Shown here piece after piece: positions 44,852-52,387 of a DNA stretch of 64,000 nucleotides. This DNA comes from Escherichia coli (GTDB lineage Bacteria > Pseudomonadota > Gammaproteobacteria > Enterobacterales > Enterobacteriaceae): the NCBI RefSeq assembly GCF_003334405.1, contig NZ_QOWM01000011.1. One strand, 5' to 3'. Every line of letters begins with the position of its first letter. Position 1 is the first letter of the stretch. The position numbers and the translations under genes are program-made. A model generated the notes under the pieces. That model was not told the origin of the DNA. It was given only the letters and a program-made list of their open reading frames with translations, and searched no databases.

Positions 44852-45056
44852 GAATTGCCACGCCTAAATGAAAACCACAAGTCCCTGGCAAATATTGTTA
44901 ATAAAAACGTGGCACAGCTTACATTTACAACGGCAAGGCCACTTGAACACCGGGACATTGTACAGGTACAACAGCAAAAGTTACAAATTTGTAGCAATTA
45001 TTTTGATTGGCATTATCTATTAATACGGCGTAGACATGAGTCTACGCCGCATCACA

Positions 45057-45587
45057 TCAGGCATTGAGAATTTCGTCGAGATGCAACTCTTCAGAAATCT
45101 GTTTAACCCATTTTTCTACACGTTCAGCGGTCAGTTCCGGCTGACGGTCTTCGTCGATAGCCAGACCGACAAAGTGGTCGTCATCTGCCAGACCTTTTGA
45201 TGCTTCGAAATGATAGCCCGCAGTTGGCCAGTGACCAACGATGGTTGCACCGCGCGGTTCAATGATGTCGCGGATGGTGCCCAATGCGTCGCAGAAATAT
45301 TCGGCGTAATCTTCCTGGTCACCACAACCAAACAGCGCAACCAGTTTGCCGTTGAAATCAATCTCTTCGAGAGTCGGGAAGAAGTCATCCCAGTCACACT
45401 GCGCTTCGCCGTAATACCAGGTTGGGATGCCCAGCAGCAGAATGTCATAAGCTTCCAGATCTTCTTTGCTGCTTTTTGCAATGTCATGGACATCGGCAAC
45501 GTCTTTACCAAGCTGTTTTTGAATCATTTTTGCGATATTTTCGGTATTACCGGTGTCGCTGCCGAAAAAGATGCCAGTGATAGCCAT
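45057..45587 (-). CDS. fldA: Flavodoxin 1
   Basis: ORF track 45057..45704; start placed at internal Met ([16 protein letters not shown]) giving 176 aa. Confidence 0.93.
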
Positions 45588-45726
45588 GAGTGAAATAACC
45601 TCTTGAAACTTATTGAAATGGGGGTGGAAAATTGCCCACGGATAAAGGCAATCATAGCAGAACAGGCAGTCTTGCGGAATCAGCAAACGAGCAGGACTGC
45701 ACACTGTGCTACATGAAAGTGGAAAT

Positions 45727-46020
45727 TTAAACGATGCCCTGACTACGCAGCGCCGCCAGTTGCTGCATTAACATCTCTTCGATCAGTTCGCTACGGCTCA
45801 TATTGCGCGACTCCGCCAGCTCGTTCAGCGCCTCGACAGCTTCCGCGTTCAGCTTCAGTTCGACACGCTTAAGGCCACGTACTTTGTCGCGTTTTAGCTG
45901 GTTGCGTTTATTAATACGCAGCTGTTCATCGCGCGAAAGCGGATTAGTTTTCGGTCGTCCCGGTCGACGCTCGTGCGCGAACAGATCTAATGTCGTACGG
46001 TCCGTTTGTTCTTTGGCCAT
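45727..46020 (-). CDS. ybfE: YbfE, small ribbon-helix-helix-like protein (recalled as LexA-regulated)
   Basis: ORF track 45727..46089; start placed at [14 protein letters not shown] (97 aa); C-terminal region resembles a CopG/RHH fold. Confidence 0.8.
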
Positions 46021-46159
46021 GATCTTGGTGACTTCGGGGGAAACAATCAGCCAGGCCTCTGCCCGGATGGATAGCGCGCCATAATACATCAGCGCGATGA
46101 GTCACGCCAACGCCCACGCGCGGAAAGCGACGCGGACGCTGGGTTTTTAATCAGTTGCG

Positions 46160-46924
46160 TTAATCATTGAGATAGCGACGGATAGCGCGTAATACCGCAT
46201 CCGGTTTTTCAGCATGGACCCAGTGACCCGCGCCTGCAATCACATGCGCCCGTGCCTGTGGAAATTGAGCCAGTAAATCATCACGGTACTGCTCGCTAAC
46301 ATACGGAGAATTGCCGCCAGGGATAAACAGGGCAGGGTGATCCCATGCCGGGATTTTCTCCCAACCTACAATATGCGGATACTGATCCCACAATACCGGC
46401 ACGTTAAAGCGCCACTCCCCGTCAACAAAAGATTTCAGCAGAAACTGAATCACCCCTTCTTCATTAAGATGCTGGCGCATTATTGCTGCTGCTTGCTGGC
46501 GAGTTTGTGCGTCCGATTCACTGACCGCGTTGATAGCCGCAAAAATCTCATCATGACGGCGTACGTGATAGTCGACCGGCGCGATATCGATCGCCACCAG
46601 TTTATCGATGCGATCGGAGGCTAGTGCAGTAAGTGCCATTACCGCTTTACCGCCCATGGAGTGACCGATAAATGTTGCTTTGTCGATCTGCTGTGCATCC
46701 AGAGTATCAACAAGATCCTGCGCCATCGCCGGGTAATTCATTACCGGATCTCTCGGTGAAAGACCGTGGTTACGCATATCAACCTGGATGATATTGTGAT
46801 CGTTTACCAGATCGCGAGCCAGTACGCCAAGGTTGTCGAGGCTGCCAAACAGACCGTGGACAAGAACGATGGGAGAATTATTGTGCTGGTTTTGTGCAGT
46901 TTGCGCGCGGATATTCAATTTCAT
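46160..46924 (-). CDS. ybfF: Alpha/beta-hydrolase esterase YbfF
   Basis: ORF track 254 aa; GHSMGG nucleophile elbow. Confidence 0.92.
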   Translation of the reverse strand: MKLNIRAQTAQNQHNNSPIVLVHGLFGSLDNLGVLARDLVNDHNIIQVDMRNHGLSPRDPVMNYPAMAQDLVDTLDAQQIDKATFIGHSMGGKAVMALTALASDRIDKLVAIDIAPVDYHVRRHDEIFAAINAVSESDAQTRQQAAAIMRQHLNEEGVIQFLLKSFVDGEWRFNVPVLWDQYPHIVGWEKIPAWDHPALFIPGGNSPYVSEQYRDDLLAQFPQARAHVIAGAGHWVHAEKPDAVLRAIRRYLND

Positions 46925-47108
46925 GGCAAAGTTCTTTTTTTCGCGTTGTCGGGTTAGGGTATTATGTTGACCATTGTGCCACAGGGCTGCAACAAATAAG
47001 GTTTATTCCGAGTTTTTCTGCAAGCCAGGCTTGACGCTATCCGCTGCCGGGATTTATTCATATACTCCTGGCGACTTGTATTCAGCTAAGACACTGCACT
47101 GGATTAAG

Positions 47109-47654
47109 ATGAAAACGATTGAAGTTGATGATGAACTCTACAGCTATATTGCCAGCCACACTAAGCATATCGGCGAGAGCGCATCCGACATTTTACGGCG
47201 TATGTTGAAATTTTCCGCCGCATCACAGCCTGCTGCTCCGGTGACGAAAGAGGTTCGCGTTGCGTCACCTGCTATCGTCGAAGCGAAGCCGGTCAAAACG
47301 ATTAAAGACAAGGTTCGCGCAATGCGTGAACTTCTGCTTTCGGATGAATACGCAGAGCAAAAGCGAGCGGTCAATCGCTTTATGCTGCTGTTGTCTACAC
47401 TATATTCTCTTGACGCCCAGGCGTTTGCCGAAGCAACGGAATCGTTGCACGGTCGTACACGCGTTTACTTTGCGGCAGATGAACAAACGCTGCTGAAAAA
47501 TGGTAATCAGACCAAGCCGAAACATGTGCCAGGCACGCCGTATTGGGTGATCACCAACACCAACACCGGCCGTAAATGCAGCATGATCGAACACATCATG
47601 CAGTCGATGCAATTCCCGGCGGAATTGATTGAGAAGGTTTGCGGAACTATCTAA
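47109..47654 (+). CDS. seqA: Negative modulator of replication initiation SeqA
   Basis: ORF track 46974..47654; start placed at internal Met ([17 protein letters not shown]) giving 181 aa. Confidence 0.93.
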
Positions 47655-51067: not shown

Positions 51068-52387
51068 TTAACCGTGTTTATTTTTCAGTTCAAAGCGTGG
51101 TGATACCAGACCATACAGTGTCCAACCAAGGAAGGTCACGATGGAACCGTACAGCATGGCTTCTTCCCCGGATGAGTACAGCGCATAAAAGCTATACATC
51201 GCGCCAACAAAAGCAACAAAGTTTGCAACTTTCGCTTTTGAGGGGGGCACATTAGCGACCTTCTGAATAATGACTAATGCCGCCATTGACAGAATATACG
51301 GAATGATATTGGTCACCACGGCCAGGTTAACCAGCACGTTGAACTGACTGTTTAGCGACGGGCTAATGGTCATCAGTGCCAATCCACTCTGAATAATCAC
51401 AATGGTCAACATTCCCTGCACCGGTGCATCCACTTTGGTTACACGGGAGAAAATTTTAGGGAAGTAGCCTTCATCAGATGAAGATTTAAACACCTGGGCA
51501 ATGGTGAACTGCCAGCCAAGTAGCGAACCGCAGCAGGACATCACCATCAGCGCCATAATGACTTTACCCACTTCCGGCGTGAACATCTGCGCGAAGGCCA
51601 GACCAAATGGTGCCGTTGAATTTGCCAGCTCCATATTTGGCACAATCCCGGCAATCACGTTGGTGGAGACGATATAAATCACCGCCGCACCTAACGTACC
51701 GCCGAGTACCGCGATTGGCACATTACGTTCCGGGTTTTCCACTACATCAGTATTCGCACACGCAGACTCCAGACCAAGAAAAGCCCACAGCGTCATAGCG
51801 ATGGAAGAACCTACCGCACTGAAGAACGGTGCATGATGCGGATTCCAGGAATCAACGTACAGCGTCGGGCTAAACCAGAACCAGCCAATAATGCACAGAC
51901 CGACGACCGGAATAATGACCCCCCACACGGTAATGCTACTGATTTGCCCGGTAATGCGCGCACCACCAAAGTTAGCCACGGTACAAATCCACAGCACCCC
52001 GATGGTCGCAAGACCAATCTGCACTGGCGACAAACTCGCGCCGAGCAGTTCGGTGCCGTAACCAACCGCCGAAATAGCAATCGCGACGTTAGCAATCAGC
52101 AGTGAGACGCCGTAGGTATAGTTCGCCATAAAGTTACCGGATTTACCGAAAGCATACTCGGCATAACCGCCCATACCGCCTGATTTACGGCTGAACATAC
52201 CGCATTTTGCGAATGCCCATGCCAGTGCCATTGAGCCTACGGCTGTCACCAGCCAGGAGATAATTGAGATTGTCCCGACTTCGGCAAGCTTTGTCGGCAG
52301 CATGATGATACCGGAGCCCATCATGTTGACCATCGTCAGTATGGTTAACTGAACGACGCCCATTTTGTTCGATTTAGCCTGACTCAT
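51068..52387 (-). CDS. potE: Putrescine:ornithine antiporter
   Basis: ORF track 439 aa, APC-family transporter; 4-nt overlap with speF. Confidence 0.94.
   Translation of the reverse strand: MSQAKSNKMGVVQLTILTMVNMMGSGIIMLPTKLAEVGTISIISWLVTAVGSMALAWAFAKCGMFSRKSGGMGGYAEYAFGKSGNFMANYTYGVSLLIANVAIAISAVGYGTELLGASLSPVQIGLATIGVLWICTVANFGGARITGQISSITVWGVIIPVVGLCIIGWFWFSPTLYVDSWNPHHAPFFSAVGSSIAMTLWAFLGLESACANTDVVENPERNVPIAVLGGTLGAAVIYIVSTNVIAGIVPNMELANSTAPFGLAFAQMFTPEVGKVIMALMVMSCCGSLLGWQFTIAQVFKSSSDEGYFPKIFSRVTKVDAPVQGMLTIVIIQSGLALMTISPSLNSQFNVLVNLAVVTNIIPYILSMAALVIIQKVANVPPSKAKVANFVAFVGAMYSFYALYSSGEEAMLYGSIVTFLGWTLYGLVSPRFELKNKHG

Follow-up and report, generated by a model that had tools for sequence, protein, structure and literature searches.

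The Escherichia coli gene ybfE encodes a conserved putative ribbon-helix-helix regulator, and its LexA box is weak, lies upstream of the promoter and is intact in three genera

The gene studied here lies in a 64-kb stretch of DNA, which was analysed as a whole and is called the window below. The coordinates 45727-46020 correspond exactly to the RefSeq coding sequence of ybfE, which specifies 97 aa from the ATG at 46020 and carries the product name 'LexA regulated protein'. The earlier note on this DNA had named the gene ybfE; its quoted peptide is contained in the ORF and the MG1655 annotation agrees. The NCBIfam equivalog NF008671 (PRK11675) matched YbfE over its full length at 169.1 bits, above the curated cutoff of 62. 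A 701-bp stretch around ybfE was 100% identical to MG1655, and the window represents an E. coli K-12-like chromosome. Of the 5426 complete E. coli genomes, 5425 contain a match to the ybfE stretch, and the gene is single-copy and chromosomal. Thus far the feature is a known gene, and the gene, the ribbon-helix-helix (RHH) nature of its product and its LexA box are already in the literature and annotation. The features discussed below are as follows.

45727-46020, minus strand: ybfE coding sequence (ORF list, RefSeq annotation, NCBIfam NF008671 at 169 bits, and the operon structure obtained by RNA-seq in PMC4161252)
45754-45867, minus strand: RHH domain, residues 52-89 of YbfE (Pfam RHH_1, PDB profile matches, AF2 and Foldseek)
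45880-46002, minus strand: basic N-terminal arm, residues 7-47 of YbfE (family alignment and AF2)
46081-46110, minus strand: σ70 promoter of ybfE, with the -35 hexamer TTGGCG (46110-46105), an 18-nt spacer and the -10 hexamer TATTAT (46086-46081)
46104-46144, minus strand: GC-rich hairpin at the ybfF 3' end, whose 5' stem contains the CAG arm of the LexA box and which also overlaps the ybfE -35 hexamer
46137-46156, minus strand: LexA box 20-mer AACTGATTAAAAACCCAGCG, with CTG at 46154-46152 and CAG at 46141-46139; an exact CTG-N10-CAG with a heterology index (HI) of 10.82
46151-46153, minus strand: TGA in the left arm of the box, which serves as the ybfF stop codon in most other genera and shares the frame of the earlier E. 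coli TAA

The annotated gene order around ybfE is chiP, chiQ, fur, uof, fldA, ybfE, ybfF, seqA and pgm. The two neighbours of ybfE encode an esterase (ybfF) and a flavodoxin (fldA), and the order ybfF-(DUF2788)-ybfE-fldA is maintained out to Shewanella. The bracketed gene, which encodes a small DUF2788 membrane protein, was observed between ybfF and ybfE at about 1269-1490 of the Aeromonas (L084) and Shewanella (L085) loci. In these two genera, a promoter-like sequence, TGATGTGATATATTCGCGCC, which resembles the enterobacterial ybfE -10 hexamer and discriminator, is located upstream of the DUF2788 gene instead. A 73-aa ORF between ybfE and fldA of Yersinia was considered as a counterpart of the Shewanella DUF2788 gene and was found to be unrelated.

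The C-terminal part of YbfE had been said in the earlier note to resemble CopG/Arc-type RHH domains, and this was borne out by Pfam, by profile comparison with the PDB and by the predicted structure. Pfam RHH_1 (PF01402) matched residues 52-89 with an E-value of 2.9e-10, covering model positions 1-38 of 39. When 23 diverse relatives of YbfE were scanned, the same model matched 6 at E<=1e-3 and 13 at E<=0.1. The family profile built from these 23 relatives was searched against the PDB and returned RHH proteins: a CopG-family regulator (7by2, E=1.3e-4), the NikR RHH domain, YiiF, CopG, ParG, AvtR and Arc, together with the RHH antitoxins Rv0298 and EndoAI. The AF2 model of YbfE had a mean pLDDT of 87.7, with values of 96-98 over residues 31-90, and contained an extended segment at about residues 51-57 followed by helices at residues 59-71 and 76-93. 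Since a monomer was modelled, the segment of residues 51-57 is extended but unpaired. The best Foldseek matches in the PDB were CopA(SO) (6iya), Arc (1bdv), CopG (1b01/1ea4) and NikR (2hza), and AmrZ, AtaR, TacA and VapB were also found. The superpositions gave target-normalised TM scores of up to 0.84 and rmsd values of 0.8-1.6 Å over ~40 residues with 18-34% identity, and their E-values were above 0.1, which would be anticipated for a domain of only 40 residues. By analogy with CopG, Arc and NikR, YbfE is most likely a dimeric transcriptional regulator.

The best-conserved part of the YbfE family is the N-terminal half (DRTT.DLF...), in which G21-R22-P23 are nearly invariant in the family alignment. 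The basic helix formed by residues 30-47 of the N-terminal arm was predicted with pLDDT values of 96-97. The GRP core appears to resemble an AT-hook, judging from its residues; the Pfam scan reported no AT-hook match in YbfE. The family is small, with 83 representatives at the 50% clustering level (E<=1e-3), and all relatives that could be placed are gammaproteobacterial, reaching as far as Yersinia, Proteus, Arsenophonus, Aeromonas and Shewanella. Some of the protein cluster representatives P0139, P0140 and P0147 are chimeric or frameshifted, and the ribosomal protein L11-like C-terminus of P0140 explains spurious matches to L11. Plasmid-borne CopB-like paralogues of YbfE were sought by tblastn against 72,556 plasmids, which returned only mis-binned chromosomal records, and this candidate was dropped. 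Quality problems were noted among the plasmid records H13-H17, H21, H22, H24 and L086: several PLSDB entries of 4-5 Mb that are labelled 'plasmids' represent entire chromosomes, and CP043024.1 (L086, 28.8 kb) is a copy of the chromosomal ybfF-ybfE region riddled with indels.

Upstream of ybfE, a search of 45650-46350 for σ70-like sites gave a single one on the ybfE strand, TTGGCG-18-TATTAT. The -10 hexamer is directly followed by the GC-rich discriminator GGCGCGC, and the transcription start site (TSS) is predicted near 46074. An identical TTGGCG-18-TATTAT is listed for ybfE among the constitutive promoters of the RpoD holoenzyme identified by genomic SELEX (PMC3946193). When 28 genera, among them Erwinia and Pantoea, were aligned, the promoter and its discriminator GGCGCGCT (46074-46081) were nearly invariant, and the -10 hexamer and discriminator were still present in Yersinia and Proteus. 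It was reported from RNA-seq that ybfE-fldA-uof-fur forms one complex operon with three promoters, and that the ybfE promoter is used by log-phase cells and switched off when they become stationary (PMC4161252). At this locus, the dominant conserved control element is this σ70 promoter and the GC-rich discriminator that belongs to it, which fits the reported log-phase expression. Taken with the loss of promoter activity in stationary phase, the discriminator suggests possible stringent (ppGpp/DksA) control. Between the promoter and the gene, the 5' UTR contains conserved sequence (TTGTTTCCCCGAAG, TTGTTTCCCCGAAGTCAC). The block TTGTTTCCCCGAAGTCAC (46025-46045, minus strand) lies just upstream of a weak Shine-Dalgarno region, was conserved across Enterobacteriaceae in the alignment, and may serve as an operator or have a part in translation.

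An exact CTG-N10-CAG was found at 46139-46154 (CTGGGTTTTTAATCAG on the plus strand), 119-134 nt upstream of the A of the ybfE ATG. The earlier note had reported no such box within 140 bp upstream and had supposed that the site might lie further off or that the SOS regulation of ybfE might be a mistake; both explanations are wrong, because the published box is inside the 140 bp that had been searched, and the false negative is corrected here. To score the site, a Lewis-type HI matrix was made from a set of 18 published operators of E. coli (PMC3009722), and both strands of the 64 kb were scanned. The ybfE 20-mer, with an HI of 10.82, was the best among about 128,000 position-strands in the window and was under the regulon threshold of ~15. 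This value agrees with the published HI of 11 for the ybfE box (PMC11228462). The next-best sites in the window had an HI of 11.28 and then 13.0. The former (CACGGTACAAATCCACAGCA, 51977-51996, plus strand) has no CTG triplet and is presumably a chance match. The scan of 45700-46400 that had been proposed for LexA boxes gave this one site at 10.82, and no other site in that interval reached an HI below 15.4. A search of a collection of papers for the exact sequence string of the box gave no match.

With the base composition of the window, the chance of an HI of 10.82 or lower is 4.75e-6 per position-strand. Sites as good would accordingly number about 0.6 in a window of 64 kb, about 44 in a genome and 0.001 in an intergenic region of 139 bp. 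Leave-one-out HI values of accepted weak operators were 11.4 for ftsK, 11.8 for dinB, 12.6 for polB and 12.8 for dinG. The ybfE LexA box falls within the range of these weak operators, and its strength is marginal. Counting of the bare CTG-N10-CAG pattern was rejected as evidence and HI scoring was used instead, because the pattern is over-represented, with 30 matches in the window against 12.6 expected from dinucleotide shuffles. The excess is likely attributable to the frequent CTG (Leu) and CAG (Gln) codons, and the bare pattern is a poor test for a LexA box in coding-dense E. coli DNA.

The operators of LexA in E. coli are known to overlap or adjoin the -35 hexamer, the -10 hexamer or the start site. 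The ybfE box is located at -63 to -82 (centre about -72) relative to the predicted TSS, with 26 bp between it and the -35 hexamer. Relative to that TSS, it neither overlaps nor adjoins the promoter. Judging from this geometry, a box at about -72 appears to be badly placed to occlude RNA polymerase.

The conservation of the box was evaluated with 80 orthologous loci, one genome per species, of which 68 were resolved for the counts of box and stop codon. A core, TGATTAAAAA, was present at the homologous position nearly everywhere. CTG and CAG were both intact in only 15 of the 68 loci, namely three of Escherichia (HI 10.8), 11 of Citrobacter (HI 13.5) and Yokenella (HI 15.1), and the box is therefore not conserved as an operator across the related genera. 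Salmonella arizonae has CAT in place of CAG, Enterobacter has TTG in place of CTG, and Kluyvera has ATG and CAT at the two triplet positions; the CAG arm is absent from the box position of Klebsiella spallanzanii and Raoultella. In Yersinia, Proteus, Aeromonas and Shewanella, the sequence upstream of ybfE contained no box, the best HI being 17-20. A survey of SOS genes in S. Typhimurium listed weak boxes for dinG (10.1), uvrD (11.5), yigN (8.7) and polB, and none for ybfE (PMC8072944). E. albertii and one further Escherichia species have the same 20-mer as E. coli although the flanking bases vary, and this identity within Escherichia could reflect selection. The name 'LexA regulated protein' is given by NF008671 to orthologues that have no box, e.g., those of Yersinia (L082) and Shewanella (L085), and it looks like an over-propagated label.

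The core TGATTAAAAA appears to be kept for reasons unrelated to LexA, because in 49 of the 68 resolved loci its TGA is the ybfF stop codon, located exactly at the equivalent of 46151-46153; in 14 more loci the stop lies no more than 4 nt away. The E. coli ybfF has an earlier in-frame TAA at 46160-46162, three codons upstream of this old stop. As a result of the acquisition of the earlier TAA, the TG in the CTG of the box is now supplied by the old stop (46153-46151), and the E. coli esterase lacks the last three residues that are present in, e.g., Citrobacter. Escherichia ybfF genes in general end at TAA or TAG three codons before those of most Enterobacteriaceae.

The other arm of the box coincides with the hairpin at the ybfF 3' end. 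On the sense strand, the hairpin at 46104-46144 had a folding energy of -29.4 kcal/mol (z=-3.8), and none of 200 shuffled sequences was as stable, whereas the opposite strand gave a z of only -0.5 (-0.46). Across 71 distinct orthologous sequences, the mean fold z was -2.4 for the sense strand and -1.4 for the antisense strand, and a comparable hairpin was found in most, but not all, Enterobacteriaceae. RNAalifold gave five pairs with no compensatory change, and no shared covarying helix was detected between ybfF and ybfE. The idea of a conserved covarying RNA element was rejected on this result, and the bias toward the sense strand was not seen in all genera. An intrinsic terminator in the antisense direction (the hairpin followed by TTTTTAATCA on the plus strand) was also rejected, because its fold was no better than shuffled sequences (z=-0.46). 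An Rfam search of 45000-47200 returned only a chance match to a snoRNA. The hairpin comes directly after the ybfF stop and has an A-run in front of it but no U-run behind it. It may be a 3'-end or terminator structure of ybfF.

The assignment of ybfE to the LexA regulon by Fernandez de Henestrosa and colleagues was reportedly based on Northern blotting of lexA+, lexA(Def) and lexA(Ind-) strains. Later papers (e.g., PMC11002266) trace the place of ybfE in the regulon to Fernandez de Henestrosa et al. (2000) and to Courcelle et al. (2001), and the description of ybfE as SOS-regulated in the earlier note agrees with what annotation and literature say. When wild type was compared with lexA3 under AZT, ybfE was induced 4.0-fold, its lexA dependence was 0.74 (none) and its SspA dependence was 2.9; the authors described the ybfE LexA box as weak and the expression as 'not lexA-dependent' (PMC11228462). 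In a ciprofloxacin time course of K-12, ybfE mRNA was not induced (PMC11002266), and in EHEC treated with ciprofloxacin the values for ybfE in the SOS protein/transcript table were 1.0 and -1.3 (PMC11125564). In Salmonella, ybfE was unresponsive to the mutagen MX (PMC2225428) and was upregulated by nalidixic acid, with no SOS box found (PMC8072944). After UV irradiation, ybfE was one of 14 SOS promoters followed with promoter-GFP fusions, and it was excluded as an outlier with a low signal and atypical kinetics (PMC5999292). The authors of that study proposed an alternative sigma factor for ybfE, a proposal not easily squared with the binding of RpoD holoenzyme in SELEX (PMC3946193). Recent transcriptomics thus give the LexA dependence of ybfE no support. 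Together with a box that is weak, off the promoter and intact in three genera, the recent RNA-seq with lexA3 makes direct LexA control doubtful.

Taken together, these results would be explained as follows. On the predicted structure, YbfE would be a 97-aa DNA-binding protein in which a basic N-terminal arm, composed of the GRP motif and a helix, precedes a C-terminal RHH domain. A LexA dimer on the box at 46137-46156 would be separated from the -35 hexamer by 26 bp, and occlusion of RNA polymerase from such an upstream site would not be expected. The box itself would have been assembled from sequence kept for other purposes, namely the ancestral ybfF stop codon, the A-run behind this stop and the stem of the 3' hairpin. 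We consider it probable that ybfE encodes a known RHH regulator on which LexA control is at most a minor, lineage-specific overlay, and that 'LexA regulated protein' is a misnomer for most orthologues. The overlay is placed so low because the box is weak and off the promoter and has both triplets in three genera only. The NCBI name, which is applied out to Shewanella, rests on this box. YbfE can be regarded as a highly conserved putative regulator whose gene heads the fldA-fur operon. The discovery value is small and nothing is new in kind; what is new is the evidence on the weakness, the position, the make-up and the three-genus range of the box.

A bolder version, which we put forward only tentatively and hold to be somewhat less likely than its negation, is that YbfE is a non-SOS, growth-phase-coupled RHH regulator with an AT-hook-like arm that controls the essential flavodoxin/fur operon. 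If so, the ancient linkage to fldA from Escherichia to Shewanella would be due to a role of YbfE in the control of the fldA/fur operon. The box in Escherichia and Citrobacter would then have arisen by accident from the ybfF stop codon, the A-run and the terminator stem, and as a result the family name would have been propagated in error across the Gammaproteobacteria.

It is unlikely that ybfE is a genuine SOS gene which LexA directly represses at 46137-46156 until DNA damage relieves the repression. Such control could act, for example, through a block to read-through from ybfF, an unmapped upstream promoter or a distortion of the upstream DNA. The TSS near 46074 is a predicted one, and a second promoter that overlaps the box may exist. 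The sole detectable promoter, which is conserved and supported by SELEX, has its -35 hexamer 26 bp downstream of the box. The site is an exact CTG-N10-CAG and the best LexA-like site of the window, with an HI comparable to those of polB, dinB, dinG and ftsK, but about 44 sites this good are expected per genome by chance. It is conserved within Escherichia and confined to three genera, whereas Salmonella keeps the weak boxes of other SOS genes. Reviews and the NCBI annotation place ybfE in the LexA regulon, and the gene served as an SOS promoter reporter after UV (PMC5999292). The induction by AZT speaks for an SOS gene, but it occurred with no lexA dependence (0.74-fold; PMC11228462), and the induction by nalidixic acid in Salmonella occurred with no detectable box (PMC8072944), S. 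arizonae having CAT for CAG. Neither ciprofloxacin (PMC11002266, PMC11125564) nor MX (PMC2225428) induced ybfE.

The earlier note had also mentioned antitoxin domains. That YbfE acts as the RHH antitoxin in a type II toxin-antitoxin system is very improbable and is effectively refuted by gene context. RHH proteins are often antitoxins, and YbfE shows a weak likeness to BrnA (NF047399) and to the PDB antitoxins Rv0298 and EndoAI, with a fold like those of CopA(SO), AtaR, TacA and VapB. However, no toxin partner is adjacent, the flanking genes being those for the esterase YbfF and the flavodoxin FldA in an order that is constant from E. coli to Shewanella, and the BrnA match, at 21.4 bits, is far under the cutoff of 60. 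The conservation of the family peaks in the basic N-terminal arm, not in a C-terminal toxin-binding tail, and the gene is a single-copy, chromosomal one in 5425 of 5426 E. coli genomes. Equally hard to credit is a 120-aa product starting at the ATG at 46089, from which the frame is open in the ORF list and which many automated gene calls use (many database entries have 119-136 aa, and one such cluster has 1016 members): the 97-aa form is right because that ATG (46089-46087) falls within the promoter, between the -35 and -10 hexamers and upstream of the predicted TSS, and because the poorly conserved sequence between the ATGs at 46089 and 46020 contains non-triplet indels across genera, and it is this form that fits RefSeq and NF008671 (model positions 1-94 of 95 with residues 1-94) and the start at MAKEQ... 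at which all orthologues align.

Among known LexA targets, the closest to ybfE are polB, dinB, dinG and ftsK, whose weak operators are likewise 20-mers of the CTG-N10-CAG type with similar heterology (11.4-12.8 compared with 10.8 for ybfE). These four operators are known to overlap or adjoin their own promoters. The ybfE box differs from them in lying 26 bp upstream of the -35 hexamer. Furthermore, the boxes of polB and dinG are retained in Salmonella, whereas that of ybfE has been lost in Salmonella and most other genera.

As for the protein, the strand-helix-helix module of CopG (1b01/2cpg), Arc (1bdv) and the N-terminal domain of NikR (1q5v/2hza) is shared with YbfE by profile and by predicted fold. 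YbfE differs from CopG and Arc, which have no such extension, in its conserved basic N-terminal extension of 50 residues containing the GRP motif and the helix of residues 30-47. A further likeness may exist to the RepB/CopB repressors of plasmids (PF10723, RepB-RCR_reg), since PF10723 is among the precomputed Pfam annotations of YbfE orthologues. PF10723 matched 2 of the 23 YbfE relatives at E<=1e-3 (best 2.2e-7), and in the Pfam scan E. coli YbfE did not match it at E<=10. The PF10723 proteins and YbfE would both be small repressors composed of a basic arm and an RHH domain. The two differ in context: RepB/CopB belong to plasmid replication, whereas ybfE is a chromosomal gene with fixed synteny.
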